A DNA stretch of 50,245 nt from an uncultured Selenomonadales bacterium (GCA_937915725.1 CALGGV010000013.1:1-50245); one strand, 5' to 3'; shown: positions 2,275 through 41,507, counted from the stretch's first letter. Translations and numbers: made by a program. Notes: generated by a model not told the origin, from the letters alone.

Positions 2275-2283
2275 TGTGCACCT

Positions 2284-24643: not shown

Positions 24644-24645
24644 TT

Positions 24646-25308
24646 TCACGCCCCCTTTGCTATTTTTTCGACTGAAAATTTTTTATCCAAATTTATTATT
24701 TCGCAGGAAATTTTTCCAAAGCCACGATTTCTTTTTGTACCGGCGGCTGTCAAATTTTTTATCGCCAATGCTATTAAATTTAAAATTTTGTCGTTAGGAT
24801 TCAAAATTTCAATCTTGCCAAAAAATTCTACGCCCGCGTTTAAAACGTTCAAATTGTGCAGAGAACCTTTGGCGGCAATTCCATTTTCCAACGCCGTCTG
24901 ATAACGAATTGAAGTAAAAGTTTTCAAAACTTCGGAAGGGCGGAAAATTTCAGGATATTCTTTCTGTAAAAAATCCCATTCGGCGCAAATTTTTTTGTAC
25001 TTGTCAAACGGGCAAATATAAAAATTCGACACAACAATTTGAATATCTGAAACATTTCCCGAATCGTCTGACATTCTGTGAAAAAGATTTTCCGGCGTCT
25101 CCAAATTTTCAGTATCCATTCCGGCAAGTTCAAACATTTCAAAAATTTCAACCGCACTTTCATAAAGCAAGCCCTTAAATCTTTTGGCGGGAAAATAAGG
25201 CAAGCCGTAACTGTCATGAACTATTTCGGCGTCAATATTTACATTTGCTTGACCGGAGCCCAAATGTATTGGCGATTCAACCTTAATTTTTACTTCAAAT
25301 TCTTCCAT
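24646..25308 (-). CDS. Cas7-family RAMP (Csm3-like)
   Basis: GSGQANVNIDAEIVHDSYGLPYFPAKRFKGLLYE and the C-terminal loop GTKRNRGFGKIS. GGAGGTG SD. Confidence 0.7.
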   Translation of the reverse strand: MEEFEVKIKVESPIHLGSGQANVNIDAEIVHDSYGLPYFPAKRFKGLLYESAVEIFEMFELAGMDTENLETPENLFHRMSDDSGNVSDIQIVVSNFYICPFDKYKKICAEWDFLQKEYPEIFRPSEVLKTFTSIRYQTALENGIAAKGSLHNLNVLNAGVEFFGKIEILNPNDKILNLIALAIKNLTAAGTKRNRGFGKISCEIINLDKKFSVEKIAKGA

Positions 25309-26954
25309 TTTTCAGCCACCTCCGGCGAATAAAAATCCATTAATTCTATTGCGTCAACATAGGGCGTGCGCGGCGAATTTTCCGTACTCCACAATAAATC
25401 CGTTATGCAAGTTTCCCAATTCGGCACTACCGGCAACTTTTGCCCTTGAACTTCTAATTGCTGTAAAAATTTTGCTGTATCGTCTTTGCCGCGCTGTAAA
25501 ATTCCCCGCAATTCTTTAATTTTGCCTTGCGTCATAACGTACGGAAATTGCGTTGTGCAGGATAATAAATTTTCGATATTGTAACGGGATTTTTTTTCGT
25601 TGCCGACTTGATAAGGTCCAAAATGCAAATTGCCGCGTGCGCCGGTATATTCACGCTCTCGAATTTGTTCAAGCGTCGGAGCTTGTTCGCCGTGTAAAAT
25701 CGCAAAATCTAACCAACTTGAAATATTTTTTTCAGCGCGCATAGATTCTTTGGCGGCGTCGCAAAGTTGCTCGGCTAATACGTAGCCTCTAAAAAATGGA
25801 TAAGCCGTCGGTAAAATCGCAACGCCCGCGCAACAATCCATTTTCCTTGAAACTTCTTGAGTTAAATTTTCCGGCGAATTTTTGGGCGTTTCCTCGTTCA
25901 AAATTTCCATTAAAGTTTTTGTAAATAAAATTGCCATATTCGCAGGGCAAATGAAAGTTACGTCATCGCCGCCAAGTATCAGCGGGCGTATCGGCAAAAT
26001 TTTTTCATTTTTTAAATCTAAAATATCTGCGAAAAGATTTTCAGTTTTTGCGGCAATAATTTTCAAAAGTAAATCTGCAAACGCGCCTTCAGTTTTTCTG
26101 CGAATTTCCCTTGAAAGTTTGCGCCTTTCCTGCAAATTTTTACAACTGCGAAATTTTACGCCCATATTATTGCCGTCAATGTGAATTATCGCAAAATAAT
26201 TTTCGCCGTCTTTTTGTCCGAGTTCGTCAACTTTTGTTGGAAATTCCCATTCTTCCATTCGCACGGAAGAATTTTTTAATTTAAAAATTTTATTGAAACG
26301 CGCCTTTAAATTTTCATTGGCAACTTTTGAAATTTTCGCCTTAACTGCCGTTTCTTGCGAATAAAATCTAATTTCATCATTCGGCTTTACAATTTTTTCT
26401 GAATCGCAGAAATTCGCCGCCTCGCCGTCAATTTCGCAACTTAAAGTTAAGCCGGTGTAAGGAACATTCACGGCAGGGAAAATATTATTCTGATTATTTT
26501 TCAATTCGCTATAAAGTTCAGAAATATCATCTTGATTCAATTTGCCGTCGATAATATTCAATTCGCCCAACGCCACACCAATTTTTAAGCCGGGGCGTTT
26601 TTCCAAAAGTTTCAAGGAAAAATCTTTGACAACTTCACAGCGTTTATCTTCCTTCGCAGAATCAAAAAGAATTAAAGCATTGCCGCCGCCAATATAAGCC
26701 ACGCAACAACTTTTCATATTTTCCCACGGCGTCTCAATATCTTTTGCGGCGTCCCACACAGTGTCTTCAGCTGACGAAAAATCATCTTCCTCAAAAAAAT
26801 TTTCCAACGTTTCTTTAACCAAAATATCAAAAAAAATTCTGTCCACAATGTACGACGCGCCTATATTTGTTCGCAGTAAATTTCCGGAATAAATGTACCA
26901 CTGAATGGAGCGCGTATCAAAAAGCAACGCGTTATATTTTATTTTCTCTTCCAT
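25290..26954 (-). CDS. cas10: Cas10-like polymerase/cyclase subunit; short form with no HD domain
   Basis: Starts directly with a palm-1-like segment (LLFDTRSIQWYIY...IGASY...YIGGGNALILF). The second palm has AIIHIDGNNMG and an intact GGDD (LILGGDDVTFICP). At 554 aa it has no room for an N-terminal HD nuclease. Confidence 0.7.
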   Translation of the reverse strand: MEEKIKYNALLFDTRSIQWYIYSGNLLRTNIGASYIVDRIFFDILVKETLENFFEEDDFSSAEDTVWDAAKDIETPWENMKSCCVAYIGGGNALILFDSAKEDKRCEVVKDFSLKLLEKRPGLKIGVALGELNIIDGKLNQDDISELYSELKNNQNNIFPAVNVPYTGLTLSCEIDGEAANFCDSEKIVKPNDEIRFYSQETAVKAKISKVANENLKARFNKIFKLKNSSVRMEEWEFPTKVDELGQKDGENYFAIIHIDGNNMGVKFRSCKNLQERRKLSREIRRKTEGAFADLLLKIIAAKTENLFADILDLKNEKILPIRPLILGGDDVTFICPANMAILFTKTLMEILNEETPKNSPENLTQEVSRKMDCCAGVAILPTAYPFFRGYVLAEQLCDAAKESMRAEKNISSWLDFAILHGEQAPTLEQIREREYTGARGNLHFGPYQVGNEKKSRYNIENLLSCTTQFPYVMTQGKIKELRGILQRGKDDTAKFLQQLEVQGQKLPVVPNWETCITDLLWSTENSPRTPYVDAIELMDFYSPEVAEKWKNLK

Positions 26955-27059: not shown

Positions 27060-27088
27060 TTGACAAAATATGGAGCAAGGAATAGAAT
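27060..27088 (+). promoter_or_regulatory. Near-consensus sigma-70-type promoter for the sheath-like operon
   Basis: TTGACA (27060-27065), 17-nt spacer, TAGAAT (27083-27088). A TAAGGAGGG SD follows, 6 nt before the GTG start at 27140. Confidence 0.6.
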
Positions 27089-27139
27089 AAATTAACAATG
27101 AAATAAATCTGAATCGGTTAACGATAAGGAGGGTTTTAG

Positions 27140-29332
27140 GTGGCAAAAATTATTAGCCAGACTAACGCTACGATGCTTTTTGAGGAAATTAATCCTGAAA
27201 AATTAGACTTGCTCACGTTAGTCGGCGATGTCAAAGGCTTTGACAGTTTGTCAGACGAAAAAATTAAGGAAATCCTGGAAACTCTTTGTGTAAAAAATTT
27301 TGATGAGTTCATTGAAAAATTTGATCCCGTTGTTTATTCTTTCTTCAACGCAAACACACAAAAAGTTATGTACACCTTGAAAAAGCCGGAGTCAATACCG
27401 GACGATCTTTTGACTGAAATTCATTTGAATTTGCAAAATGATTTTCTTAGAATGTTGCTTACGCTTGTTGATGCAAAACGTTCTCAAGGTTTACTCAATG
27501 TCGATTTTAAATTTGAAAATTTGACAGATTTAATTTCGCCCCACAAAATTATTGAAGATATTAAGCAAAATCGTAAAGAATTGCGCTATACTTATTCGCA
27601 GTACGTACAACTTGATGACGACGACCCCAAAAAGTTGGATATTGGCGATAAGCTTAACATTATGATGGAAGAGGCTAGCGTCAACTACAATAATGTTATG
27701 GCAATGTTGCCTTTGGCGATTGAGGATATTAAAACGCGGCTGTTACTTTCAAGCGGTGGCGGCGGCGGCGATTCTGCTCCACTTGCATTGGGCGTCTTGA
27801 CTATGGGCGAACAGGGCGAATTGAAAGTTATCGAGGCTCCTAAAGAAGAAAAATCCACTGCCCTTGTTACACTTGATGATAAAGTGAATGAAGGCTTAAT
27901 TGAAGTTATCGGCGAAGATTACGAGGCACTCAACGAAGAAAATCACAACGATTACGTTAAAGCACTTGTAACGCGCACTTTCTGTCCTTTGCCTTCAACT
28001 ATGGTTAGTGAAATTGATATTGCAAAAGAAGTTGAAAATTATAACGCCTATCTGCAATTCTACAAAGAATCTAAAGACGATTTCATTAAAACTGTTAAAC
28101 CGCTGATTGAAAAAATTCTCGGCGTCAGACTTTTCTTTGAACAATATCCTTCAAAATTGCGCGGTATGAGACCAACTTTGCTTATCACAAATATTAGCAA
28201 TGAAATGATGGCTAAGGCTCCAAATATTCCGCGCCTTGTTACTTATCTTAACACTGTAAACGGCAAAAATAATTTTGACAATACAATTTGGTATGCTATT
28301 TTCCCGTCGGTTGCATTTGATGCAGGCAGTAAACCTAAATTGACTCGTCAAAGATTTAAAGGCAATGACGCGCCTACAAATACCAATGTTCACAGCGTTG
28401 AATCCTTAACCAGAATTTTGGACGTTTTAAAAGATTTCCGTATTCAATGTTTCTTCAGTTTCGCCTCAAATGAAAAAAATACTTTCAACGCAATGGCTAC
28501 TGAAGGTATTGAAAAATATATTGATAAATCTTTGCCGCTTACGGCTAAGGCGTTCAGTGAATTTGCTATTCCTTGTTTCCCTAACTTTACTATAATTCCA
28601 AAAGATAAATCCGGCGTTGTTCTTGATACAAAAATGGAAGTCAACGAAAATAATTTGGCTGAAATTTCAAAGGCAAAACAGGATATTATGAAACTTTGGA
28701 TTGACGGCGTTTACGTTGGCGCGGCTTATGTTGCCGCCGGGCTTGTTGCTACTTATCAAGACCCGGAATATCTGAAAATGATTTTCCGTCGTAATATTGA
28801 TAATGAATTGCCGGGCGTTCGTTTCGATATTGAAACCGGCGATAATTCACTTTTGGTTTACACCACGCTTGCCAAAGAAATTACCGGCTTTACCAATCCT
28901 ATCAAAGACGAAATTAACAAAAAATGTTTCGGCTTTGTATTCTCTTCAGAAAATGCAATGTTTAACGGAATGCCAATTACAAACGTTATGGTTTACAAGT
29001 CCAGAAACTTGCTTTACGATGAAGATAACGGCGTTTACGAGCCAATTTATAAAACTCAAGTCACAACTTATATTCAAAGAGTTTTGCGCAATATGTCCAG
29101 CGATTTCAAACAAGATAAAATTGTGCGTTTCTTCAGCAGTAACCCCGCGTCGCAGTCCAGCAAATGGCTTGACAAACGCGAAAGACTCAATGCTATTATC
29201 GGTACCGGCGATGATATTTCTTACAATATTGACGAAGAAAACGGAATTTGCACTTTGAATATCACTTTCAATGGCAATGTTAAAAATCTTGAAATTGAAA
29301 CAAGCCGCACAACTTCTGCAAGACACGTTTAA
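27140..29332 (+). CDS. Contractile-sheath-like protein, apparent TssB(VipA)-TssC(VipB) fusion
   Basis: The N-terminal 170 aa or so carry LLTLVGDVKGF, VKNFDEFIEKFDPVVYSF and VDFKFENLTDLISPHKIIEDI. These are in the same order as the VipA motifs I recall (LLAIGDYT; IDKMTFDEVL; LRFKTLKDFEPENIVQQV). A Gly5 linker (27755-27769) follows, then about 520 aa collinear with remembered VipB landmarks. The call is by eye only. Confidence 0.5.
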   Translation: MAKIISQTNATMLFEEINPEKLDLLTLVGDVKGFDSLSDEKIKEILETLCVKNFDEFIEKFDPVVYSFFNANTQKVMYTLKKPESIPDDLLTEIHLNLQNDFLRMLLTLVDAKRSQGLLNVDFKFENLTDLISPHKIIEDIKQNRKELRYTYSQYVQLDDDDPKKLDIGDKLNIMMEEASVNYNNVMAMLPLAIEDIKTRLLLSSGGGGGDSAPLALGVLTMGEQGELKVIEAPKEEKSTALVTLDDKVNEGLIEVIGEDYEALNEENHNDYVKALVTRTFCPLPSTMVSEIDIAKEVENYNAYLQFYKESKDDFIKTVKPLIEKILGVRLFFEQYPSKLRGMRPTLLITNISNEMMAKAPNIPRLVTYLNTVNGKNNFDNTIWYAIFPSVAFDAGSKPKLTRQRFKGNDAPTNTNVHSVESLTRILDVLKDFRIQCFFSFASNEKNTFNAMATEGIEKYIDKSLPLTAKAFSEFAIPCFPNFTIIPKDKSGVVLDTKMEVNENNLAEISKAKQDIMKLWIDGVYVGAAYVAAGLVATYQDPEYLKMIFRRNIDNELPGVRFDIETGDNSLLVYTTLAKEITGFTNPIKDEINKKCFGFVFSSENAMFNGMPITNVMVYKSRNLLYDEDNGVYEPIYKTQVTTYIQRVLRNMSSDFKQDKIVRFFSSNPASQSSKWLDKRERLNAIIGTGDDISYNIDEENGICTLNITFNGNVKNLEIETSRTTSARHV

Positions 29333-29356
29333 TTTTGAAGTAGAGGGGTTTTTGAT

Positions 29357-29782
29357 ATGGGTTTTAGAGTTTCAATTACCGGCGGCAATGACGTTTCTTT
29401 TGACGAAGGGATTATTACCGGCGTAAACTTTATTTCAGATACGCCCGATAATGCAAATGCAAGATCAACAGACCTTAGCGTCATTATGAAAATTACCGGC
29501 AGAATTAATTTTTCACTCGGCGCAGAAATTAGCGATTCAACCGTTGAATTGGCAAATTGGGCGTTGATGCCTTCAGATCAAGCGGATTGTTACCGCAGTG
29601 TTGAAGTTCAAGTCATAAACGGCGGGCAAGTTGTACGCCAGTATACTTATCCTAACGCCTTTGTTATGGATTACACTGAAGATTTGAACGATGAAGAAGG
29701 CGTCGGTACTTTTACCATTTTGCTGAAACAAAAGAAAGATTTAACGGCAAAAGTGGAACTTAAAGGCAATTTTGAGGCATAA
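29357..29782 (+). CDS. Hcp/TssD-like tube protein candidate, paralog 1
   Basis: 141 aa. The pattern ...W.....YRSVEVQV..GGQVVRQYTYPNAFVMDYTEDLNDEEGVGTFTILLKQ resembles the Bacteroidetes-type TssD (PF17642) layout. It lies immediately downstream of the sheath-like gene. Confidence 0.45.
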   Translation: MGFRVSITGGNDVSFDEGIITGVNFISDTPDNANARSTDLSVIMKITGRINFSLGAEISDSTVELANWALMPSDQADCYRSVEVQVINGGQVVRQYTYPNAFVMDYTEDLNDEEGVGTFTILLKQKKDLTAKVELKGNFEA

Positions 29783-29797
29783 AGGCGGTGATTTTTT

Positions 29798-30223
29798 ATG
29801 GCATTGGCATTTTCTACGGCAGATCCCGAAATTACGCTTGAAGAAGAAAGTACTAAAAAAATTATTTTCAGAGTCGAAATTCCGCAAGACAGCCGCGCGC
29901 GTACAAAAGATGTTGGCGTAAGTTTAACTGTTATTGGAAAAATTATGGCTGATACTGCACAACTCGGCAACGCGGCTGACAGTACCGCAAAGCTTATGGA
30001 ATGGTCGGTTATTCCGGCAGAGAAAAAAGAGGCTTACCGCAGCGTTACCTTAAAAGTCACAAGCGGCGGAGTTGTTACGCGCCAATATGAACTTCCAAAC
30101 GCTTTTATTGTCGATTATCATGAAGATTTTGAAAGCGATGACGGTATTGGAGAATTTACGCTTGTTCTTAAGCAGATGAAAAATAAATTGGCTGATGTAA
30201 AAGTTACAGGCGGTTTCACCTGA
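29798..30223 (+). CDS. Hcp/TssD-like tube protein candidate, paralog 2
   Basis: 141 aa and clearly paralogous to 29357..29782 (YRSVTLKVTSGGVVTRQYELPNAFIVDYHEDFESDDGIGEFTLVLKQ). Confidence 0.45.
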   Translation: MALAFSTADPEITLEEESTKKIIFRVEIPQDSRARTKDVGVSLTVIGKIMADTAQLGNAADSTAKLMEWSVIPAEKKEAYRSVTLKVTSGGVVTRQYELPNAFIVDYHEDFESDDGIGEFTLVLKQMKNKLADVKVTGGFT

Positions 30224-30243
30224 TAAAAAAATTTTGCAAAAAA

Positions 30244-30278
30244 GGGAGACGGCTGAATTTTTTAATTCGCTGTCTCTT
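30244..30278 (+). terminator. Intra-operon hairpin (attenuator/partial terminator candidate) between the structural and accessory genes
   Basis: GGGAGAC GGCT GAATT tttt AATTC GCT GTCTCTT gives a stem of about 14 bp with one bulge, followed by a weak U-tract (TATTGT). Confidence 0.35.
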
Positions 30279-30301
30279 ATTGTATGGAGAGAATTTAATT
30301 T

Positions 30302-30784
30302 ATGAATTATTATGAAATTCTCGGAGTGGACAGACAGGCAACGGCTCAAGAAATAAAAAAAGCGTATAAAAAGTTGGCGAAAAAGTGGCACCCCGATTTA
30401 AATCGTGACGACCCAAAAACCGCTGAACAAAAAATGAAAGAAATTAATGTTGCTTACACTACCCTTTCAGATGAAGTTGCCAGAATTGACTACAACAAAA
30501 AACTTGACGCCGAAAAGGCAAATTCTGAACATTCTACAAAAACTAAAAAATCTGACGCTCATAAAACCGGAACTGCCAAAAAATCTTCCACCGGTACTTC
30601 AACTGCAGGGGTTAATTTTAAAAATATTCACTCCAGTTTTGAAACTTTTTTCGGTTTTAATCCTAAAACGCACGAAGTTACAAATGAAGATAAATTAAAT
30701 ACATTTTCTGCAAATAAGAAAAAGAAAAATCCGCTTGATACAACAGATTTTTTTGAAAAGTTTATGGGCTTTAAAGTTAAATGA
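30302..30784 (+). CDS. J-domain (DnaJ-like) protein with a Lys/Thr-rich tail
   Basis: [33 protein letters not shown] contains the HPD motif. It has no zinc-finger or C-terminal DnaJ domains. Confidence 0.85.
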
Positions 30785-31320
30785 CACGGTACGATTTTTA
30801 TACGGCTTTAATCGGCATCATCAGTGTATTTTTTTCGCTTGCAATTTATTTCGGCGAAATTAATTTTTATGCAAAAATTTTTCTGATAATTTGCGGCGCG
30901 GCGATTTTTTCTCATTCGACTTTTACTTTGTATCGCATCTTGAAAGAAAAAAATTCTGCGCAAGAAAATTTTTACTCAAAAAATATCAGTCAAATTTCCC
31001 TGTTGAATCAAAAAGGCGAAATTATTTCTTCATGGGAACTTTATGGCAAAAATTCGGCGGTTATCGGAAAAGACTTTGGAGAAAATCAAGTTGATATAGA
31101 TTTAAGCGAAACTCCATACGCGGCAATGATTGATATTGAACACGCGGTTTTAAATTACGCGGACGGGAATTGGTACATTGAAGACTTGGACAGCCAAAAC
31201 GGTATTTCAATAAAAAAATTCGGGCAGGAAGAAATTTATAAATTAAGTTCGTCGCAGCCTTGCAAATTAGATTTTGGCGATATTATTTTTATTGGTGTTT
31301 GCCAACTAAAATTGAATTAG
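30781..31320 (+). CDS. Membrane-anchored FHA-domain protein
   Basis: Two N-terminal hydrophobic helices, then an FHA-like core (SAVIGKD...[30 protein letters not shown]). ATGA overlap with the J-domain gene. Confidence 0.7.
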
Positions 31321-31332
31321 AGAGGAATTTTT

Positions 31333-31875
31333 ATGAACGGTTTAATTCGCTGTCAAAACGGGCATCTTTTCAGCTCCCGCCGTTACGGTACAATTTGCCC
31401 TTATTGCAACCTTGAAACTGCGACGCCGGAAAAAAAAGAAGTACCTGTGACGGACGAAGAAACTATAAACGCGCTTTTAATGAGTAATATTCGCCCTGTT
31501 TGCGGCTGGATTGTTTGCATTGAAGGCGCACGCAAGGGCAAAGATTACAAAATTCACGCCGGAAAAAATTTTGTCGGTCGCGCAGATGATATGGATATTC
31601 AAATTTTGGGCGATAACGCAATATCCCGCCGCAACCACGCAGTTTTAGTTTACGACCCCAAAAAACATGAAACAGTTTTGTTGCCCGGCGATTCAAACGG
31701 AATTGTTTATTTGAATGACGCGGCTTTATATTCGCCGACAGTTTTGAGCGTTTATGATGTTATCGAACTTGGCAACAGCAAATTTTTATTTATTCCGTTT
31801 TGCGGCGATCATTTTCGCTGGGAAGATTTACCGGAGCAAGACGATAAAAATTATTTGCAGTACGGAAAGGAATAA
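31333..31875 (+). CDS. Zinc-ribbon plus FHA-domain protein
   Basis: N-terminal C..H...CPYC ribbon, and an FHA core (NFVGRADDMDIQILGDNAISRRNHAVLVYDPKKHETVLLPGDSNGIVYLND). Confidence 0.7.
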   Translation: MNGLIRCQNGHLFSSRRYGTICPYCNLETATPEKKEVPVTDEETINALLMSNIRPVCGWIVCIEGARKGKDYKIHAGKNFVGRADDMDIQILGDNAISRRNHAVLVYDPKKHETVLLPGDSNGIVYLNDAALYSPTVLSVYDVIELGNSKFLFIPFCGDHFRWEDLPEQDDKNYLQYGKE

Positions 31876-31880
31876 TTTTA

Positions 31881-32702
31881 ATGGCGGATATTTTAATTCC
31901 GGCATTTCTTTTTTTGTGTATGGCGGCTTTACATTTTTTGAGAAAAAAAGAAATTTCAACGCCTAAAAATTTTTCTGCAGAATATGAAATTGGCGCGGCG
32001 TCAACTTTCGGCACTCGTGAAATTCAACAAGATTATTTTGGCATAAAGAAAAATAACGGCGTTTTGTTAATGACATTGGCGGACGGTATTGGAGCCGACG
32101 GCGAATTTGCGGCAAAATTGGCTGTCGATACTTTCAGAGATTTATTTGAAAAAGAAAATGCAATTATAAAGCCGCAATATTTTTTTAAACGCGCCGCCAA
32201 TGCCGCTCACAAAAAAATTACAAACACTTTGGAAGAACGGCAAGGCGAAAGTTCAATAGCCGCCGTAATTTTGAAGGACGCGCAATTTTTTTATACTGTA
32301 GTTGGAAATTGCCGCGTTGCAGTTTTTAGGGGCGGCGATTTAGTTCCGGTTTCTGAAGGACAAACTATCGATATTTTGGCAAGACACAGTTACAGCGAAG
32401 GAAAAATTTCAAGGCAAGAAACTTTGGAATTGCTTAATAAACACCGCAGTTATAATTTTTTGGGGCAAGATTCTTTTTCTGAAATTGAATTTTTGAGCAA
32501 GCCGATTGCACTGCAAAAAAAAGATATGCTTGTAATTATGAGCGAAGGAATTTTTAACACTTTACGTTGGGTTGAAATTGAATCCGTCTTGGAAAGAAAT
32601 TTTTCAGCCCAAAATACAGCAGATGAAATTATTAAACTTGTGAATAATTCGCCGATAGTTTCAAAAGACAACGCCACAATTTTAATTTGTCGTTGTCAAT
32701 AA
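31881..32702 (+). CDS. PP2C-family Ser/Thr phosphatase with an N-terminal TM helix
   Basis: LADGIGADGEFAAKLAVDTF, VVGNCRVAVFRGGDLVPVSEGQT, VIMSEGIF and DNATILICR match the PPM motif order. Confidence 0.75.
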   Translation: MADILIPAFLFLCMAALHFLRKKEISTPKNFSAEYEIGAASTFGTREIQQDYFGIKKNNGVLLMTLADGIGADGEFAAKLAVDTFRDLFEKENAIIKPQYFFKRAANAAHKKITNTLEERQGESSIAAVILKDAQFFYTVVGNCRVAVFRGGDLVPVSEGQTIDILARHSYSEGKISRQETLELLNKHRSYNFLGQDSFSEIEFLSKPIALQKKDMLVIMSEGIFNTLRWVEIESVLERNFSAQNTADEIIKLVNNSPIVSKDNATILICRCQ

Positions 32703-33116
32703 TTTAAATTTCAATTCTACGCCGCCTAAAATCGCCGTGAAAGTGTCTTGAAGAATTTTTAGGATTTTTTTACAAAATTTTATTTTATTAACAAGTCGGC
32801 ATTTTAAAACGCCTAGCAAAGAAAGAATCTTTCGCCCTGCAGGTAAAAACGGAGTGCAGCGGGCGTCCTTCGATACTTCAAATATTAAATTTGTAAATAT
32901 ACTCTAAGTAATTTCCTTAAAAAATTTTAAATCCTTTAAATTTTGATTTTAGTGCGTGGAATTTGGCAATAAAATTTTCCAATTTCAGTAACTTAAATTT
33001 CAATTCTACGCCGCCTAAAATTGACGAGAATGTGTCTTGAAAATTTTTTACATAAAATTTACCTTAAAAAATTTTTAAACCCCTTAAATTTTGATTTTAG
33101 CGCGTGTAAAGGTTTA
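32703..33116 (+). repeat. Tandem duplication of a roughly 115-nt segment; the first copy is interrupted by a MITE-like element
   Basis: ttaaatttcaattctacgccgcctaaaat...gtgtcttgaa occurs at 32703 and 32993. ccttaaaaaatttt..aaattttgattttagYgcgtg occurs at 32925 and 33062. The segments are contiguous in copy 2 but separated by the element in copy 1. Confidence 0.7.
32757..32908 (+). repeat. MITE-like structured repeat copy inside the sheath-like operon
   Basis: taggatttttttacaaaatttt...ttaacaagtcggcatttt...cggagtgcagcgggcg...aaatttgtaaatatactctaag. Confidence 0.6.
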
Positions 33117-35264
33117 ATGATGAGAAAATCCAACAGCATTTTTAAAACGGCATTTGTATCGGAGGCGGGCGCGGAACTTGCCAACAATGATTATTTTGCT
33201 TATGTTGAAGATGATGATTTTGCTTGCTACGTTTTGGCGTCGGGCATTACTGATTTTGAAACTTCAGAGGCGGCAAAGGAAGTTGTTGAACATTTAATCT
33301 TGAGTTTTGAAGAAAAGCCGAGTATGTCAAAATCAACTCTTTTGCAATATATGAACGAAACTAACGAAAGACTTTTGAACAGCACTCACTCGCGCAGATT
33401 AAAAGCCTCCGTGATAATGTTGGTTACGGATTATGAAAAATTTCGGTACGTTGCTGCCGGTAATGTCCGCTTGCGAATGTACCGGCAGGGACGTTTTTTT
33501 TTGAAATCTTCGGATATGTCGTTGGCGAATGATTTAATCGAAAAGGGCGAAAGTTATACCCCGCTTGATAAACATGAGGAACGGCATAATTTATACGCTT
33601 ATCTTGGCAAAAAAGATTTTTTTAAGCCTTTTATTTCAAAAGTTCAGAAATTGGCGGACGCAGATATTATTTCTTTGTATTCGCAGGGCTTGTGGGAACA
33701 TGTTGACGAACAAGAAATTGACGAAGTTTTTGCAGAGGCATCGGATAAGCCTCAAGAATCCGTTGATTTTTTGGAAGAAATTTTACTTTCACGTCAGCCG
33801 GAAAATCTGAAAAGTTACACTGTAGCCGCAATTTTTATAGATAAAATTTTTCGTGACCCCGAACGCGAAAGAAAACGTTTGCTTTACATAAAAATTGCCG
33901 TCATTATTATTATCATTCTCATTATAGTGGCAATTATTTTTTATATTTTGGACAGAATTTATCAAGACAAAGTACAAGATTTTGAAAGTACAATGCAACA
34001 ATCGCAAGAATTTATGGCGAATGGAAATTATAAACGTGCGCAAGAAGTTTCAAAAAAAGCTCTGGATTTAGCGCAGGAATTGAAACGCAATGAAGACGTA
34101 AAAAATATACAAGAAGACTTGATGATTTTAGATAATATTGTACAGGCTGATATTGCCTACAATGAAAAAAATTATTCGCTGGCATATGAAGATTATATGA
34201 ATGCTCTGAAATATTCTTCCGGAACTGATAAAGAAATTCGCAATTACATTCAACGCCGTTTGCATATGATTGAAAATCGGCTGGATATTCAGCAATTTCT
34301 GTTGTTGGGCGATTATCTTTTTCAAAATGGCGAATACGACGAGGCAGAATCTTTATATTTGAAGGCGATTGAGAGAGCCTCAACAGTCCACGATAACGAA
34401 GGGCGAAATAGCGCAACAGCCGCGCTTGAAAAAGTTTATGATAAACGCGCTGAACTGCGCAAAGACGCCGAGCAAAAATTAGACGCCAAAAAACAAGCCG
34501 CCTTGAATGACGCACTAAAAAGAGGCGATGATTTATTGGCGGCGGGCGATATTGAGGGCGCAGAAAAAGCTTATCGTGACGCAAGAAACCTTTCAGATAA
34601 TCCTGCAGACCGTACACAAACGGACGCGGCATTGAATAAAATTAATTCAGCACGTGACGACAAGTTGAATAACGCTGTACAAGCCGCGCTGAAAAAAGGC
34701 GATGATTTATTGGCGGCGGGCGATATTGACGGCGCAGAAAAAGCCTATCTTGACGCAAGAAACCTTTCAGATAATCCTGAAGTAAGAATTCAAACAAATG
34801 AAGGCTTAGGAAAAGTTGCAGAGGCGCGGGATAAAAAAATTTTGGAAGAAAGAACTACAGCTGAAGAACGCCAAAAACTTTTTGATGACGCTGTACAAAC
34901 TGAACTTAAGGGCGATTCTGCCTTTGAATCCGGCGATTACGCCTCCGCGCAAATGTACTATATGACGGCTATTGAAAAATTCAGCAATTTATCTGAAGAG
35001 CCAAAAGTTAAAGCTATTCAAAATAAATTCGACGCGTCTAAATCTAAAGAAACTGAATCACACTCTCAAAAAGCAGACGCCGAAAAAGCTGAAGAAAACG
35101 CCCGCAATTTCTACATTGAGAAAAATTTTGCAGAGGCACAGGCGGCGGCAACTCAAGCTAAACAACTTTACAGCGAACTCGGCATGAAGAGTAAAGTTGA
35201 CGAAATGGATATTTTACTTCAACAAATTGCCGTTGACTCTATGATTTCTGATTCCTTAAAGTAG
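33117..35264 (+). CDS. PP2C-like (possibly degenerate) domain, TM helix and helical-repeat (TPR-like) protein
   Basis: The ATG at 33117 lies just past the duplicated segment. The N-terminal domain follows PP2C order but reads ASGITD where DGMGG is expected. TM helix IAVIIIIILIIVAIIFYIL. The C-terminal helical repeats include a near-identical 58-aa duplication. Confidence 0.6.
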   Translation: MMRKSNSIFKTAFVSEAGAELANNDYFAYVEDDDFACYVLASGITDFETSEAAKEVVEHLILSFEEKPSMSKSTLLQYMNETNERLLNSTHSRRLKASVIMLVTDYEKFRYVAAGNVRLRMYRQGRFFLKSSDMSLANDLIEKGESYTPLDKHEERHNLYAYLGKKDFFKPFISKVQKLADADIISLYSQGLWEHVDEQEIDEVFAEASDKPQESVDFLEEILLSRQPENLKSYTVAAIFIDKIFRDPERERKRLLYIKIAVIIIIILIIVAIIFYILDRIYQDKVQDFESTMQQSQEFMANGNYKRAQEVSKKALDLAQELKRNEDVKNIQEDLMILDNIVQADIAYNEKNYSLAYEDYMNALKYSSGTDKEIRNYIQRRLHMIENRLDIQQFLLLGDYLFQNGEYDEAESLYLKAIERASTVHDNEGRNSATAALEKVYDKRAELRKDAEQKLDAKKQAALNDALKRGDDLLAAGDIEGAEKAYRDARNLSDNPADRTQTDAALNKINSARDDKLNNAVQAALKKGDDLLAAGDIDGAEKAYLDARNLSDNPEVRIQTNEGLGKVAEARDKKILEERTTAEERQKLFDDAVQTELKGDSAFESGDYASAQMYYMTAIEKFSNLSEEPKVKAIQNKFDASKSKETESHSQKADAEKAEENARNFYIEKNFAEAQAAATQAKQLYSELGMKSKVDEMDILLQQIAVDSMISDSLK

Positions 35265-35272
35265 GTTAAGTT

Positions 35273-37951
35273 ATGGCGCAAAAAAAATATTATGAACATG
35301 ATTTAAAAAGAATGACGGTTTACCATTTGCAAGAAATTGCACGGCGTGAAAAAATTATCCCGGCGGTTGCCAATCGCTTGGATAAGGAACTTTTGATACA
35401 AACAATTTTGCGTTATCGCGGCGCAGAAAAAGCCTTGTTGATAAATGAATTTCGCGCAGAAGATTATCAACGGCTTGAAAATTTTTTCCCTCACATAACC
35501 TTTCAGCCGCAACCAATAAATTTGAAATGTAACGCCGGTATAAAAGTTTGGCAAGGATTAGCCGTAAATTTTTTTGACAATATCACAATAAATTACACGC
35601 CAACTTTAAGCGGTACAAATGCTTTTATTGTTGACAGCCAAAAAAATTTGTGTTGCATTTTCAACGTTGAAGAAAAAATTAACGATAAAAATTTTCTGTA
35701 CCTGCGCAAAAATAGGGATCTGCCCTGCCGTGAATCGCAGATTAAAAATTATTTTCTGATTCTGATGGAGCGCGTTTACTCTGAACAATTTTTTAATTTT
35801 TACAACGGTAAAGCCTCTATGATTCAAGAAAATATTCCCGCGTATTGTCTGCAACTTTTGAACTTTCAAGTTTTGGAGCCGGAAATTTTAAAAATGCCCG
35901 TTGCAATAGATTTTGGAACTTCAAGCACAACCGCCGGCGTTTTGGATTTCAAAGAAAAAAGCAGCGTTGCAAAACTTCACAATGAAAGTATTAAGCACGC
36001 CCTTTTTTACGATTTTGACGGCAAAGAAACTGATTTAGTTCCAACAATTATTGGCGTAAAATCTTTAGAAAATCCTGAAAAACCGAAATATATTTTTGGC
36101 TATGACGCCTTCAAATTTTCGGCGTATATGGACGAGGGCTTTTCGGTTTTTTACGATATAAAACGCTGGATTTCAGATTTTGACAAGGAAGAAGAATTGA
36201 CTGATAATTTGGGGCGGCGCGTTTTTGTCAGTCGAAAAAAAATCCTGCGCGAATTTTTTATTTATATAATTCACGCGCTGGAAGATTATATTAAGGGGCG
36301 CGTTCGCTATGTGCACATTTCCGGACCGGTTAAGCAAAAGGGAAAATTTCAACATCTTTATAAAGAAATTTTGCCCGAATACGCCGTTGAACAAAAAGAA
36401 ATGATTGATGAAAGTGTGGCTGTCCTTTACAACATTATCAGCGAATTTATCGAAAATAAAACCATTCGCAACCGCCAAAAATACAGCGCGTTGGTTATCG
36501 ACTGCGGCGGCGGAACTACGGATATTTCGTCTTGCAGTTTTTCAGTTGACAATCAGCGCGTTTCTTACGCCATTGATATTGAAACCGGCTATGAAAACGG
36601 CAGTACAGATTTTGGCGGAAATAATTTGACTTATCGAATTTTGCAGATTTTAAAATTGAAAATCGTTGAAAATCTTTGCAAGCAATATTTAAATCGCAGC
36701 CCTTTAATTACGGCGCAACGGGAATTTTACGGCGAAAAATTTTCTTTTGACCAACAAACTTTTTTGAAGGCGTCAGCAATTCCAACTTTAAAAAGTTTGC
36801 TTAAAGATTTTAATTTGGACGTTTTCAGGTACATTGATGAAAACGGCGTCGCCTCAATCTACAAAAATTTTGAAAGTGCTTATGCACAAGCTGAAGAAAT
36901 TTTGCCGACTAAATTTAAAGAATGGGAAAATAAAAATCGCAGGGAATATTTTTTAGTGCGGAATAATTATTATTTTTTGTTTGGAATTGCAGACAGAATC
37001 AAGCAAGCATTTTTTCAAAATTACGGAATAATTCAAGTTTTGTTGGCGATTGAAGGCAACCACGATAAGCCGAGCCGAAATTGGGAAATTAATCGCCAAT
37101 ATGAATTTTTCGGCGATAATTTAATAAAAATTCCGCTTGACAAATGGAAGTTGACTTTGAAAAATTCTGAAGGGCTTACCTTGATAAAAAATTTGCCGGA
37201 TATTTCTTTCAGTATTTTTGAAATTGAGCCGATTTTAAACCCGGATATTTACAATATAATTCGGCAACTTTTGGATCCGATTTACGAGAGCGGCGAAATT
37301 GAAAATTACAGCTTGATAAAATTAAGCGGGCAGTCTTGCAAAATTGATTTATTTCGCACTTCGTTAAAAGAATTTGTACCGGGCAAATTGATAAAATCTA
37401 AGCCCAGAGCTGAAAAAAAATCTGAACAAAATGAATTAAAAATGTCTTGCATTGACGGCGCGTTAAAATATCTGCGCGATAAAAAATTTGGTTACGCTGA
37501 TATAAAAATAAAAAATCGCAGTCCGCATTTGCCGTACATTTTAACCGGCTTTACTCATACCGGCGAAGAAGTTACATTGATTGACGACGCGCAGTCTAAA
37601 GAAAACGGCGTCCTTTCCCGCAATATTGAAGATTTAACTTTGACTGTCTACCTTAAAGATAATGAAAAAAATTTGCGTCAAGAATTGATTTACGAATGCA
37701 CGCTTGAAGAATTTGACGAGAAAAAACAGGAAGAAATAGAAAAGATTTACGGCGAAAATATTCCGCAAGATGAAACTGATACAATCGTGAACGGCGAAGT
37801 AAAATTTTTTATTTGGGTGGAGTCTCAAGATTGGGGATTTGTAATTGTGCCGGTTTATCGTGAAGATGAAACTTTGTACGTCGGCAAAGAAAAATTTTTC
37901 AATTTTGAAAATGATCAGTGGATAAAAAATTTCTTTGACGGCTTGAAATAA
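35273..37951 (+). CDS. Atypical Hsp70/actin-fold ATPase (892 aa) with an N-terminal extension
   Basis: Phosphate-1-like VAIDFGTSSTTAGV and phosphate-2-like LVIDCGGGTTDISS. The N-terminal 200 aa or so start with a SAP / Rho-N-like helix pair (MTVYHLQEIARREKIIPAVANRLDKELLIQTIL). There is no canonical DnaK substrate-binding domain signature. Confidence 0.7.
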   Translation: MAQKKYYEHDLKRMTVYHLQEIARREKIIPAVANRLDKELLIQTILRYRGAEKALLINEFRAEDYQRLENFFPHITFQPQPINLKCNAGIKVWQGLAVNFFDNITINYTPTLSGTNAFIVDSQKNLCCIFNVEEKINDKNFLYLRKNRDLPCRESQIKNYFLILMERVYSEQFFNFYNGKASMIQENIPAYCLQLLNFQVLEPEILKMPVAIDFGTSSTTAGVLDFKEKSSVAKLHNESIKHALFYDFDGKETDLVPTIIGVKSLENPEKPKYIFGYDAFKFSAYMDEGFSVFYDIKRWISDFDKEEELTDNLGRRVFVSRKKILREFFIYIIHALEDYIKGRVRYVHISGPVKQKGKFQHLYKEILPEYAVEQKEMIDESVAVLYNIISEFIENKTIRNRQKYSALVIDCGGGTTDISSCSFSVDNQRVSYAIDIETGYENGSTDFGGNNLTYRILQILKLKIVENLCKQYLNRSPLITAQREFYGEKFSFDQQTFLKASAIPTLKSLLKDFNLDVFRYIDENGVASIYKNFESAYAQAEEILPTKFKEWENKNRREYFLVRNNYYFLFGIADRIKQAFFQNYGIIQVLLAIEGNHDKPSRNWEINRQYEFFGDNLIKIPLDKWKLTLKNSEGLTLIKNLPDISFSIFEIEPILNPDIYNIIRQLLDPIYESGEIENYSLIKLSGQSCKIDLFRTSLKEFVPGKLIKSKPRAEKKSEQNELKMSCIDGALKYLRDKKFGYADIKIKNRSPHLPYILTGFTHTGEEVTLIDDAQSKENGVLSRNIEDLTLTVYLKDNEKNLRQELIYECTLEEFDEKKQEEIEKIYGENIPQDETDTIVNGEVKFFIWVESQDWGFVIVPVYREDETLYVGKEKFFNFENDQWIKNFFDGLK

Positions 37952-38290
37952 TTTGCCCTGCTATAAAAAATTTTGATAGTTTTGTAGTCCAGCTATAAGT
38001 CTACCCGGAAAAATACCCTGCGGGGCTTTTTATTTTTCAAATATTTCAGTTTCAAGGGATTTGAGAATAAGCAACAAGGGAGCTGTTAAAATCGACAGAA
38101 TCAATACCGGCGGTTAAACCAATAAATTTAACAGAGCCGGAACCGATTTTAGCGATAAAATCATTGCCATCGTTGAACATAGAATCGTTGCCAGCACCAG
38201 CCCCCACTTTCAAGAAAATTTTTTTATGTCTCGAATTTGCATTTGTAATTGTTTTAAAGTGATTAATTTCAAAGTCCCTCCCTCGCTTTG

Positions 38291-38378
38291 CTAGGATTTG
38301 TTTACAAATTTTTCTTTTTTAACAAGTCGGCATTTCTTTCTTTAGAAGAAATAAATTACCAAAGAAAGAATCTTTTTT
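38291..38378 (+). repeat. MITE-like repeat, 5' half only, truncated at the prophage-remnant boundary
   Basis: ctaggatttgtttacaaattttt...ttaacaagtcggcatttctttctttagaagaaataaattaccaaagaaagaa, after which similarity ends. Confidence 0.55.
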
Positions 38379-38593
38379 TTATTATTTGGCGCGCCATTCG
38401 GTCTGCCTTTTTTATTCAAAATATCTTGCTTGCCAATATAATAATTTTTCAACTTTTGCTGATATTGCAAAAATCTTTCAGAAGTCAATTCATAACTGCC
38501 TGTGATTTTTACTTCGCCACGCTTTAAGGATTCAATCAATCTTACGTCAACCGCCGTTTGTGTGGTAAACAATTCTACTGGTAAATCAATCAT
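38342..38593 (-). CDS. Small phage-like hypothetical protein; its C-terminus runs into the MITE fragment
   Basis: GGAGGA SD 7 nt before the ATG at 38593. The last 12 codons or so are encoded by repeat sequence, which suggests truncation. Confidence 0.4.
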   Translation of the reverse strand: MIDLPVELFTTQTAVDVRLIESLKRGEVKITGSYELTSERFLQYQQKLKNYYIGKQDILNKKGRPNGAPNNKKKILSLVIYFF

Positions 38594-38670
38594 TTTGGAT
38601 CCTCCATTACAATGCAAAATTACCTTTGCTGATACGGCGTGTACGTGCAGATTAAGGAAATCTTTCAAGC

Positions 38671-38950
38671 TCACCTAATAACGGTTTTACTTTTAACTTT
38701 AAAACCTGCCAAACTGCGAATATAACTTTGCGCTTGTTCTTTACCTGCTTGACTGGGGTCTTGCGGTATCAGAATTTTTTTACAGCCGTATTCAAATTTA
38801 TCAGTTTCAGCCATACTTTTAACAAGTGATCTGATATTAGCAGCATTTGCCGCTATCCTTTTTACATCAAGTATAAATATATTGCCCATTTTTCATTCTG
38901 CCCATCAAAACACCTGCAGTTCTGTCAGGGTCTTGATTTAAAAGATTGAC
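38671..38950 (-). pseudogene. Phage terminase large-subunit remnant (C-terminal nuclease-domain fragment, frameshifted)
   Basis: ...DPDRTAGVLMGRMKNG in one frame continues as NIFILDVKRI...ILIPQDPSQAGKEQAQSYIRSLAGFKV in another. The frame break is near 38865-38895. The N-terminal ATPase part is absent. Confidence 0.55.
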
Positions 38951-39132
38951 TTAGTATGGATTCTCTTTGCACTTTAATCCTGTTGATAAAAATTCCAACA
39001 ACAATTTAGATTTATTCTGTAAGTACTTTATGATAATGCTGTTGCAGAAAATTTCTTCAATTGTTTGAAATGCTTATTTGCCTATATTGAAGGTTATCAC
39101 AACTACATTCATATTTTTTCTGTTCGTTTTTT

Positions 39133-39819
39133 CTAGAAACACTCACTTTTTGCACTTTTCATTTTATCCATAAGCTCTTCTAATCCTGTTTTGGGGTCGA
39201 ATATTTCATATTCGGGCTCTTTCCAAGTCATATTGCCGTTGGTATCATAATATTTTTCAAAACCTGATCTATACGTTGGAGGATTAGCTAATATCAGTGC
39301 GTTTGGATTATCTATAACTTCTTCAAGATGTTTCCACATATCAAGCGTACGGTAATTCATACCACCGAGAATATCTTTAGCACGATTCAGCTGCTCACTT
39401 AAAAATTTAATATGTTCATCACGCCGCTTTTCCATATCGACAAGATAATTATAAAAATAATCTTTTTCGGCATTCTTTGCCATACTTAAATATTTCCACG
39501 CATACAAAGCAGTAGCAGGGTCTAAAAGTTCTTCATCTCTGAAACCTTTAGCTTTTAAACAAAGTTCTTCTAAAGGTTGCCCTGTTATTGCGTATCCCAT
39601 TATTGAAGTAAACATTGAAACGTCTGAATTTTCAATTTGAGAAGTTTTAAAACCGGCTTGAATTGCCAAATGTGATAAAGCGAATGCACCTGCACAAGGT
39701 TCAATAAACTTTGTATAGCCATTTTTCAAAGCATTTCCAACAAGCGTTTTCAAAAATTCTTGTTCCGATGTAGTTAACGTTGTTAAGAAAAAAATACCCG
39801 GTGCTCGAAAACCTTGCAT
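39133..39819 (-). CDS. Dam-like (D12-class) N6-adenine DNA methyltransferase, orphan, phage-type
   Basis: FIEPCAGAFAL (motif I-like) near residue 40 and LILANPPTY (motif IV-like) near residue 180, with the same spacing as in Dam. No adjacent endonuclease gene. Confidence 0.5.
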   Translation of the reverse strand: MQGFRAPGIFFLTTLTTSEQEFLKTLVGNALKNGYTKFIEPCAGAFALSHLAIQAGFKTSQIENSDVSMFTSIMGYAITGQPLEELCLKAKGFRDEELLDPATALYAWKYLSMAKNAEKDYFYNYLVDMEKRRDEHIKFLSEQLNRAKDILGGMNYRTLDMWKHLEEVIDNPNALILANPPTYRSGFEKYYDTNGNMTWKEPEYEIFDPKTGLEELMDKMKSAKSECF

Positions 39820-39884
39820 AAATCATCAACTATTTTTTTAATATAAAAGCCTCAACCATTTTCTGATTGAGGCGTTATTTTCAT

Positions 39885-39958
39885 TGGTACGCCGATCAGG
39901 ATTCGAACCTACTTCTCCCGGCTCAGAACCGAGCATTTTTCCACTAAACTATCGACGG
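39885..39958 (-). tRNA. tRNA-Gln-like (anticodon CUG), CCA encoded, slightly non-canonical
   Basis: Hand fold of 74 nt: anticodon stem CTCGG/CCGGG with loop TTCTGAG; T-loop GGTTCGAATCC; D-loop with AGTGG. C1-U72 and 49-65 are mismatched. It abuts the stop codon of the upstream gene. Confidence 0.6.
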
Positions 39959-40750: not shown

Positions 40751-40849
40751 CGTAAATCCTCCTCGCGCTTTTACACTACACACATTCCACTTATCAAAAC
40801 ATTAGCACGATTCTACATATTAACATTTTAACTTTTGGCAAATGCCTTG

Positions 40850-41281: not shown

Positions 41282-41290
41282 TCCTTTTAC

Positions 41291-41494
41291 TTATATAAAT
41301 TCGGCAAAACCAAAATTGCATTTTTGACATTTGCAATTAAAACCACGACCGAATTTATTCTGAATCTGCTCAATAATATCTTTTTGTTTAGATACTATTT
41401 TAATGTTTCCGCGCTTATTAAATTTAAATCGGATAGTGCTTTTAGCCTCTACAACAACATCATCACTTCCGCACTTCGGACATTCAATTTTCAT
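41291..41494 (-). CDS. Small zinc-ribbon protein (prophage remnant)
   Basis: CPKCGS ... CQKCNF, a pair of CxxC motifs within 67 aa. Confidence 0.45.
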   Translation of the reverse strand: MKIECPKCGSDDVVVEAKSTIRFKFNKRGNIKIVSKQKDIIEQIQNKFGRGFNCKCQKCNFGFAEFI

Positions 41495-41507
41495 TTATAT
41501 AACCTCC

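Follow-up and report, generated by a model that had tools for sequence, protein, structure and literature searches.

A 50,245-nucleotide (nt) stretch of DNA from an uncultured Selenomonadales bacterium (GCA_937915725.1 CALGGV010000013.1:1-50245), hereafter called the window, carries an operon of nine genes (27140-37951) whose products probably make up the core, both structural and regulatory, of a contractile injection system specific to Firmicutes and similar to a type VI secretion system (T6SS). This reading is carried by (i) the modeled fold of a 730-amino-acid (aa) protein, the best structural match of which is the T6SS sheath protein TssC, (ii) the modeled tube fold of two 141-aa proteins encoded directly downstream, and (iii) the conservation of the block as a unit among Firmicutes, where related loci additionally carry spike, toxin, and immunity genes. 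At the level of gene content, a tube and a sheath-like protein that occur together with VgrG, PAAR-like toxins, and immunity genes read as the signature of contractile toxin delivery.

An earlier note made from the sequence of the window had described nine co-oriented and tightly spaced genes behind a near-consensus promoter, and this layout was recovered: the nine open reading frames (ORFs) have the lengths given in that note, share the plus orientation, and abut or are separated by less than 80 bp, except for a 415-bp gap (32703-33116) before the eighth gene. The features of the operon are listed below with coordinates, strand, description, and the evidence used.

27060..27088, +, sigma-70-type promoter-like site TTGACA-17-TAGAAT (11/12 consensus matches, predicted from sequence)
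27140..29332, +, 730-aa sheath-like protein (AlphaFold2 model and Foldseek match to TssC)
29357..29782, +, 141-aa Hcp/tail-tube-like protein, paralog A (family alignment with paralog B, family profile)
29798..30223, +, 141-aa Hcp/tail-tube-like protein, paralog B (AlphaFold2 model and Foldseek)
30302..30784, +, 160-aa J-domain protein, HPD motif intact, low-complexity tail (Pfam DnaJ)
30781..31320, +, 179-aa FHA protein with two N-terminal transmembrane (TM) helices (Pfam FHA, hydrophobic segments in residues 6-51)
31333..31875, +, 180-aa protein with N-terminal Cys/His cluster and FHA/YscD-type domain (Pfam)
31881..32702, +, 273-aa membrane-anchored PP2C phosphatase (Pfam PP2C_2, TM residues 2-20)
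32684..33110, +, intergenic region with a duplication of 289-bp period (repeat analysis and alignment with the closest relative, locus L015)
33117..35264, +, 715-aa PP2C-like protein with TM segment and tetratricopeptide repeats (TPR), 747 aa if started from TTG 33021 (NCBIfam, PADLOC, Pfam TPR)
35273..37951, +, 892-aa atypical Hsp70-like ATPase (hhalign against E. coli DnaK)

The Putative Sheath Protein

The 730-aa protein was modeled with AlphaFold2 (predicted local distance difference test score, pLDDT, 87; predicted template modeling score, pTM, 0.88) and consists of a possible TssB-like N-terminus, a helical insert (approximately residues 100-335), and an alpha/beta core. The best PDB match of this model in Foldseek was 9n4v_A (probability 1.00, E-value 2.5e-3), which is chain A in a structure of the extended sheath-tube complex from Azotobacter and was checked to be TssC; the template modeling score (TM score) was 0.43 by target length and 0.24 by query length, with a root-mean-square deviation (rmsd) of 14.9 Å. 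The remaining PDB matches had E-values of at least 0.1, and the one with a high probability among them (0.80, third match) was a chain of a phage phi812 baseplate entry. Among viral models the best match was an unnamed 529-aa Caudovirales protein.

Sequence searches returned no corresponding signal. No match to the 730-aa protein was obtained in Pfam, NCBIfam, PHROG, PADLOC, or PDB sequences, a Pfam scan of 66 diverse members of its family gave no match, and the family profile found nothing among PDB sequences, TssC chains included. Comparison of the family by hhalign with single E. coli TssB and TssC sequences likewise gave nothing, and comparison with a TssC profile built for this purpose (8 sequences from eight genomes) gave a probability of 0.15-0.18% for both the full length and the C-terminal half. 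The N-terminal 175 residues were colinear with a TssB profile (P = 0.005, range 0.005-0.013 across comparisons), and in the profile alignment two of the most conserved TssB stretches paired with conserved motifs of the 730-aa family, a weak indication of a TssB-like N-terminus and hence of a TssB-TssC fusion. The fused TssB-TssC-like sheath proposed in the earlier note thus retains its TssC part as a fold-level match and its TssB part as a weak N-terminal resemblance, and the comparison of 27140..29332 with sheath families gave the structural match with null profile searches and no TssC sequence match. Taken with the genomic context, from which much of the support comes, the model makes it quite likely that the protein is a sheath. 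The database name of the family, "transcriptional regulator", was supported by none of the searches.

It is quite improbable that the 730-aa protein is instead another kind of scaffold, belonging to a module of threonine phosphorylation and chaperones in which the Hcp-like proteins would serve as rings, chaperones, or carriers without contraction. The silence of every profile method with regard to sheaths, the TM score by query length together with the large rmsd, and the helical insert of ~235 residues, which has no counterpart in sheaths, agree with such a role. However, TssC was the sole notable PDB match, the next being the phi812 baseplate chain, and the N-terminus is weakly TssB-like; furthermore, the gene always lies directly upstream of the tube genes, in relatives stands near VgrG and PAAR-like genes, and is the most constrained gene of the block.

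The Putative Tube Proteins

The two 141-aa paralogs share 35% identity and fall into one family alignment. For the AlphaFold2 model of paralog B (pLDDT 72), all top 50 PDB matches were tube proteins (E-values 1e-5 to 1.6e-3, TM scores 0.5-0.6), with the tubes of the Photorhabdus virulence cassette (PVC) and the antifeeding prophage (AFP) at the top, together with Hcp1 of several bacteria, Hcp5 of B. fragilis, and phage tail tubes. The sequence signal was weak: Pfam TssD matched paralog B below threshold (E-value 0.011) and was weakly matched by 18/30 members of the family, and the family profile searched against PDB found Hcp1 of F. johnsoniae (6bdc) with an E-value of 0.003. By sequence the family is nearest to the Bacteroidota-type Hcp (Pfam PF17642; PDB 6bdc), and hhalign against a single E. 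coli Hcp gave nothing. Both paralogs were kept in 71/77 loci. The two Hcp/TssD-like paralogs of the earlier note were borne out when 29357..30223 was compared with Hcp/TssD, and an Hcp/tail-tube fold of the 141-aa proteins can be considered confirmed at the level of the structural model.

The database name of the tube family, "membrane-associated protease 1", was rejected, being unsupported by any search, and no paper using it was found. In a Dendrosporobacter locus (L001, 12301-14821), a YkuD (L,D-transpeptidase) gene interrupts a series of three tube paralogs, which hints at a link to peptidoglycan remodeling.

Distribution and Gene Content of Related Loci

The sheath-like family comprises more than 2,486 proteins in a word-indexed search, or 546 clusters at 50% identity. 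In a genome scan with an alignment of 13 closer sequences as query, relatives of the sheath-like protein were found in at least 392 species-level genomes, and the block was syntenic in at least 80 Firmicutes genomes from the Negativicutes, Clostridia, and Bacilli. The hosts include Selenomonadaceae, Sporomusa, Pelosinus, Propionispira, Dendrosporobacter, Lachnospiraceae, several Clostridium species, Anaerovirgula, Marinisporobacter, Wukongibacter, Paenibacillus, and Brevibacillus. The best 80 genomes were all labeled Firmicutes or unclassified, bar one contig labeled as a Bacteroides thetaiotaomicron metagenome-assembled genome (locus L066); on this contig the block is complete and the sheath-like protein is 66% identical to that of the window, as in Lachnospiraceae copies. 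Misbinning is more likely than an occurrence in Bacteroidota. The gene order (sheath-like, tube, tube, J-domain, TM-FHA, putative zinc-ribbon-FHA, PP2C, PP2C/TPR) was kept in nearly all complete loci, and the Hsp70-like gene came next wherever the retrieved stretch extended far enough. The gene-neighborhood check suggested in the earlier note thus returned a nine-gene block that is kept as a unit in Firmicutes.

By tblastn, no homologs of the 730-aa protein were found in phage and plasmid collections. A prophage tail remnant was ruled out by the null PHROG result, the lack of phage homologs, and the conserved non-phage gene set.

The related loci hold further genes that extend the block. In 62 of the examined loci a vWA membrane protein is encoded beside the sheath-like protein, and two genes for uncharacterized proteins of ~427 aa and ~231 aa (u427 and u231) precede the Hsp70-like gene in ~25 loci; the profiles of u427 and u231 found nothing among PDB sequences or in comparisons with single E. 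coli TssE/F/G/K sequences, which have low sensitivity. In Lachnospiraceae, cassettes between the J-domain and FHA genes encode VgrG-like proteins (with Phage_GPD, Phage_base_V, and DUF2345 domains), Imm11-like proteins, and PAAR-like DUF4280 proteins, one of them being a fusion with a phage-tail lysozyme. Sister Selenomonadaceae, with sheath-like proteins 88-89% identical to that of the window, carry genes for vWA, a 643-aa protein of unknown function, Rhs-repeat, and VgrG-like proteins directly upstream and divergent, and the closest relatives (86-92% identical) have a Sel1 gene and a 431-aa gene of the u427 family after the Hsp70-like gene.

More distant relatives, at 26-29% identity, have sheath-like, tube, VgrG-like, DUF4280, u231, Imm11, and Hsp70-like or Pfam HSP70 genes, with u427 in one locus; among these distant loci, L095 and L096 hold members of the 892-aa Hsp70-like family, and L097 holds true PF00012 HSP70 proteins. 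No FHA, PP2C, or DnaJ gene was found in the loci of these relatives. Because they keep the other components without FHA, PP2C, and DnaJ, the ancestral core consists of sheath-like protein, tube, spike, PAAR-like protein, the two uncharacterized proteins, and an Hsp70-type ATPase, and the set of FHA, PP2C, J-domain, and vWA proteins is an addition in the subfamily of the window's operon and not part of the defining core.

The earlier note had envisaged, as one possibility, a stripped-down, spikeless, and possibly cytoplasmic machine. This view was not upheld, since relatives carry VgrG-like, DUF4280, Rhs, and Imm11-like genes, and the window therefore shows just part of a more extensive secretion system. 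An unlikely variant of it would be a sheath-tube assembly that stays inside the cell and secretes nothing, having its role in cell death under stress or in abortive infection against phages, with the FHA and PP2C proteins sensing the trigger and the Hsp70-like and J-domain proteins controlling assembly; the contractile systems of Streptomyces, to which it can be likened, are cytoplasmic. A window without spike, PAAR, or toxin is what this explanation has in its favor, together with the position of the operon between type III CRISPR-Cas (clustered regularly interspaced short palindromic repeats) genes and phage-like and restriction-modification genes, flanks that vary between strains as in variable islands, and weak matches of the PP2C-like and Hsp70-like proteins to PADLOC candidate systems. 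On the other hand, the VgrG, Rhs, and Imm11-like genes of relatives and their fusion of a PAAR-like protein to a peptidoglycan hydrolase are the mark of toxin delivery between bacteria, membrane anchors are present in three components, 7/9 proteins have no PADLOC match, and the match of the Hsp70-like protein has an E-value of 0.006. Identity with a known PADLOC defense system was rejected, the matches being weak and confined to two candidate-system models.

FHA and PP2C Proteins

The TM-FHA, zinc-ribbon-FHA, and TM-PP2C proteins named in the earlier note were recovered with Pfam matches above threshold and, for the TM-FHA and TM-PP2C proteins, TM segments; the zinc ribbon is a candidate read from the sequence. 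The 179-aa protein matched Pfam FHA at 3.2e-8, and the 180-aa protein matched Yop-YscD_cpl at 1.2e-8 and FHA at 2.6e-6; the Cys/His cluster of the latter is a possible zinc ribbon, and this protein is the best-conserved regulatory part, with 54-76% identity in genomes outside its own family. The 273-aa protein matched Pfam PP2C_2 (2.9e-9, 37.2 bits against a cut-off of 24) and, below the curated cut-off, NCBIfam Stp1/IreP (1.7e-21), and its DGxG and DN motifs were seen by eye.

For the 715-aa protein, the description as a PP2C-like, TM, and helical-repeat protein also held: its N-terminal domain matched NCBIfam Stp1 below the cut-off (8.8e-14), and PADLOC PDC-M21C (2.2e-12), TPR_2 (5.5e-10), and a TM segment (residues 260-278) were found. 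The PP2C-like domain is probably an inactive pseudophosphatase with a scaffold role, because its metal-binding Asp positions, read by eye, are SG and SQG. The gene contains an internal tandem duplication of 174 nt (58 aa) in its TPR/helical region (34511-34795), the copies of which are 88% identical, and this duplicated part gave the worst alignment with relatives. TM segments are thus present in three proteins of the operon (the 179-aa FHA, 273-aa PP2C, and 715-aa proteins).

In FHA and PP2C the earlier note had seen the hallmark of the threonine-phosphorylation pathway that controls some proteobacterial T6SS, and thus a regulatory half that fits the structural half. Two FHA proteins and one PP2C protein above Pfam thresholds agree with this; the kinase part was not recovered, no Ser/Thr (Hanks-type) kinase being found in the window. 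NCBIfam TagH/VI_FHA reached an E-value of just 0.051, and the FHA proteins are not orthologs of Fha1. In the Selenomonadaceae relative L085 a triad of Pkinase, PP2C_2, and VWA genes (1-2542, minus strand) is found on the opposite strand, a few kb upstream of the operon; this triad could supply the kinase that is missing here or could be a TerY-P-like module with no relation to the system.

J-Domain and Hsp70-Like Proteins

The assignment of the 160-aa protein as a J-domain protein was clear, with a Pfam DnaJ match of 1.7e-24 (86 bits against a cut-off of 27.8) and "WHPD" in the translation, which contains the HPD motif; at 94 against a cut-off of 377 for TIGR02349 it is not a DnaJ ortholog. 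The 892-aa protein has a SAP/HeH-like N-terminus and an uncharacterized C-terminal half. A profile of 20 of its orthologs aligned by hhalign with residues 5-241 of E. coli DnaK (probability 74%, E-value 2.7e-5), and the alignment covers IDLGTTNS (phosphate-1), DLGGGTFD (phosphate-2), and the Hsp70-specific NGDTHLGG; the Hsp70 signature motifs aligned in this family include NGDTHLGGEDFD. The Pfam scan of the 892-aa protein itself gave no match, that of 20 relatives gave weak matches to HSP70 (1/20) and Actin (2/20), the family profile found no Hsp70 among PDB sequences, and no substrate-binding domain was detected in the protein. The alignment with the DnaK ATPase domain agrees with the atypical Hsp70-like ATPase of the earlier note, and the protein is predicted to be Hsp70-like in its ATPase domain and not a DnaK ortholog.

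Boundaries, Selection, and Missing Parts

Nucleotide alignment with the closest relatives spans 27118-37952 and ends at both ends of the operon, and therefore the block behaves as a unit. Relative to the closest relative, the ratio of nonsynonymous to synonymous substitution rates (dN/dS, averaged over both lineages) was 0.06 for the 730-aa gene and 0.10-0.19 for the eight others; all nine genes are under purifying selection, which is strongest on the sheath-like gene. Promoter sites with 11/12 consensus matches occur just twice in the 11.8-kb region, one of them being 27060-27088, and the GTG start at 27140 has a ribosome-binding site (AAGGAGG, ~27127-27133) in front of it. For the eighth gene, ATG 33117, at which homology with relatives begins, is the most likely start, and not TTG 33021.

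The earlier note had listed TssE/F/G/K, TssJ/L/M, ClpV, VgrG, and PAAR as missing, and within the window this absence holds. By Pfam and NCBIfam, neither the TssE/F/G/K baseplate nor TssA was matched in the operon or elsewhere in the window, and the TssJ/L/M membrane complex, any AAA+ or Clp protein (hence ClpV), the VgrG spike, and the PAAR tip were not found in the window. Neither tblastn nor hidden Markov model searches of the six-frame translation matched the VgrG, DUF4280, Imm11-like, vWA, 643-aa, Rhs, Sel1, u427, and u231 genes of relatives to the window. No phage-type baseplate, tape measure, tail fibers, cap, or Afp15-type ATPase was found in the operon or related loci by Pfam and PHROG. 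The spike, toxin, vWA, and two uncharacterized genes of this genome must be encoded elsewhere or have been lost.

Loss is the essence of an explanation we hold to be rather unlikely, namely that the operon of this strain is a decaying or orphaned remnant from which vWA, VgrG/Rhs, Sel1, u427, and u231 were removed by rearrangement, leaving no working machine. In line with this, synteny with the closest relatives ends exactly at both ends of the block, the genes that follow the Hsp70-like gene in the 86-92%-identity relatives are missing here, u231 and u427 are core genes of the whole family and yet absent from the six reading frames of the window, and the operon contains the 289-bp duplication. 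All nine ORFs are intact, however, the dN/dS values of 0.06-0.19 (an average over both lineages) argue against decay, and T6SS spike and accessory genes are often scattered; the window covers 50 kb, and its contig, which comes from a bioreactor metagenome, is at least 149 kb (149-173 kb) long.

The duplication at 32684-33110 consists of repeats of 78 nt and 43 nt with a period of 289 bp, and overlapping alignment blocks indicate that the closest relative lacks ~235-290 bp of this region. Shortly after the end of the operon (38297-38335), a 39-nt part of the duplication is found again. A small mobile or recombining element may have left the duplication behind.

Proposed Machine

In the T6SS-like system that we favor, the 730-aa protein would polymerize into a contractile sheath enclosing a tube built from hexamers of the 141-aa proteins, with one 141-aa paralog forming the bulk of the tube and the other perhaps acting as tube initiator or adaptor, like the second tube paralog of PVC and AFP. 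The TM-FHA, putative zinc-ribbon-FHA, TM-PP2C, and pseudo-PP2C/TM/TPR proteins would provide a membrane platform for assembly, to which relatives would add the vWA membrane protein and the two uncharacterized proteins (~430 and ~230 aa); a baseplate role of u427 and u231 is pure inference. Assembly would be gated by threonine phosphorylation, with a kinase encoded elsewhere (we guess a housekeeping Hanks-type kinase), FHA proteins reading the mark, and PP2C erasing it. Firing would launch a tube loaded with VgrG and PAAR. Afterwards the J-domain protein would recruit the Hsp70-like ATPase, which would dismantle the contracted sheath in place of ClpV. The Francisella T6SS disassembles its sheath with ClpB and not ClpV (PMC7182274), and therefore ClpV is not the sole possible recycler.

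Several points weigh against this reading. No sequence profile links the 730-aa family to TssC or any other sheath family, its fold match is modest (E-value 2.5e-3, TM score 0.43 by target length), and the tube model is of moderate confidence (pLDDT 72). The window is without VgrG, PAAR, vWA, u427, and u231, which a T6SS-like machine would need, and baseplate, membrane complex, tape measure, and kinase were unrecognized in the window and in related loci. The passage of a tube through a thick Gram-positive wall is unexplained, and assembly, firing, and secretion are read from genes and models.

Comparison with Known Systems

The operon resembles the canonical T6SS (T6SS-i) in (i) a sheath-like protein whose best structural match is TssC and a tube with the Hcp fold, (ii) FHA and PP2C components, as in the PpkA/PppA/Fha1 pathway, (iii) the VgrG-like, PAAR-like, Rhs, and immunity genes of its relatives, and (iv) a dedicated ATPase that is a possible sheath recycler. 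Unlike in the canonical system, the sheath-like protein has no detectable sequence homology to TssC and is apparently a single 730-aa chain, TssE/F/G/K, TssJ/L/M, TssA, ClpV, and the kinase are lacking from the operon, an Hsp70-like protein with a J-domain protein takes the place of the AAA+ unfoldase, and the hosts are Firmicutes. The T6SS is described as Gram-negative (e.g., in PMC13584744). The locus fails most of the tests that define a canonical T6SS.

In the way it would work, the system is nevertheless most like a T6SS, and its closest conceptual neighbors are the divergent T6SS classes of Francisella and Bacteroidota. Francisella T6SS-ii shares with the operon and its relatives a DUF4280-type PAAR-like protein, IglG (PMC5014421), and shows sheath disassembly without ClpV by the general chaperone ClpB (PMC7182274); the Hcp type of Bacteroidota T6SS-iii is the one nearest to the tube family (PF17642; 6bdc). 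In contrast to the operon family, both classes have kept recognizable TssB/TssC and baseplate proteins, Francisella IglA/IglB matching the TssC profile at 1e-118. To our knowledge, the set of FHA, PP2C, J-domain, and Hsp70 proteins is not part of the Francisella or Bacteroidota T6SS.

Extracellular contractile injection systems (eCIS) and cytoplasmic contractile injection systems (CIS), such as PVC, AFP, AlgoCIS, and Streptomyces CIS, are similar in that PVC and AFP tubes rank first among the structures matched by the tube model, two tube paralogs are present, the sheath is a single chain, and Streptomyces CIS occurs in a Gram-positive host. They differ in that gp25/gp6/gp7-type baseplate proteins, tape measure, tail fibers, cap, and Afp15-type AAA+ ATPase were not recognized in any locus of the operon family, where gp27/gp5 modules occur just in the VgrG-like genes of relatives, and in that the sheath-like protein best matches TssC and not an eCIS sheath; there were no PHROG matches. 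The locus fails the tests for an eCIS as well.

A last point of comparison is the orphan modules of Phage_GPD and DUF4280 (PAAR_H2) in Firmicutes, near which a 2021 survey of PAAR proteins found no T6SS or eCIS genes, speculating on an unknown translocation system (PMC8651086). The same gene pairs occur in or near the block in Lachnospiraceae, Selenomonadaceae, and the distant relatives; here they are linked, unlike in that survey, to a core of sheath-like, tube, and Hsp70-like genes, the window itself being without spike and PAAR genes.

The literature search returned no paper describing the block, in agreement with the earlier note, which knew of no described contractile system of this composition, and with a coverage that was incomplete, so that a prior description is possible. 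We see about an even chance that the block represents an unrecognized T6SS-like class native to Firmicutes, with a sheath unrelated in sequence to TssC, novel baseplate and envelope proteins, recycling by Hsp70 and J-domain proteins, and delivery of orphan VgrG/DUF4280 toxins. Such a class would span both monoderms (Lachnospiraceae, Clostridium, Paenibacillus, Brevibacillus) and the diderm Negativicutes. Contact-dependent antagonism in Firmicutes is attributed mainly to the type VIIb secretion system (T7SSb) and LXG toxins.

If this is true, a machine of sheath, tube, and spike in hundreds of Firmicutes species would change the view of the T6SS as a Gram-negative weapon, would pose the new mechanical problem of firing across a thick cell wall, and would constitute a second independent solution to sheath recycling, with Hsp70 and J-domain proteins versus an AAA+ unfoldase. 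The orphan VgrG/DUF4280/Rhs toxins of Gram-positives, a puzzle raised in 2021, would find an explanation as well, and the present analysis supplies candidate sheath, tube, and recycling parts for the translocation system speculated upon at that time (PMC8651086). The species concerned include abundant gut and rumen Lachnospiraceae and Selenomonadaceae as well as the cultivable Clostridium beijerinckii, Selenomonas ruminantium, Sporomusa, and Paenibacillus, and with several cultured hosts the hypothesis is directly testable.

Genomic Neighborhood

Upstream of the sheath-tube operon, and divergent from it, lies a type III CRISPR-Cas effector operon (18383-26954, minus strand) that encodes Cas6, several RAMP proteins, and a Cas10 palm domain; Tandem Repeats Finder detected no CRISPR array in the window. 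In sister strains this position holds the vWA, Rhs, and VgrG genes. Downstream, the region 38342-41936 (minus strand) contains the gene of a phage DAM-like methylase (3.2e-64) along with several ORFs that matched no Pfam family, and relatives carry the Sel1 gene and the 431-aa gene in place of this phage-like DNA.

A HaeIII-type restriction-modification pair is located at 46879-48844 on the plus strand, with an intact C5-cytosine methylase. The HaeIII endonuclease is represented by two overlapping ORFs (47886-48365 and 48362-48844), one matching the N-terminal and the other the C-terminal half of the Pfam model, and is probably frameshifted.

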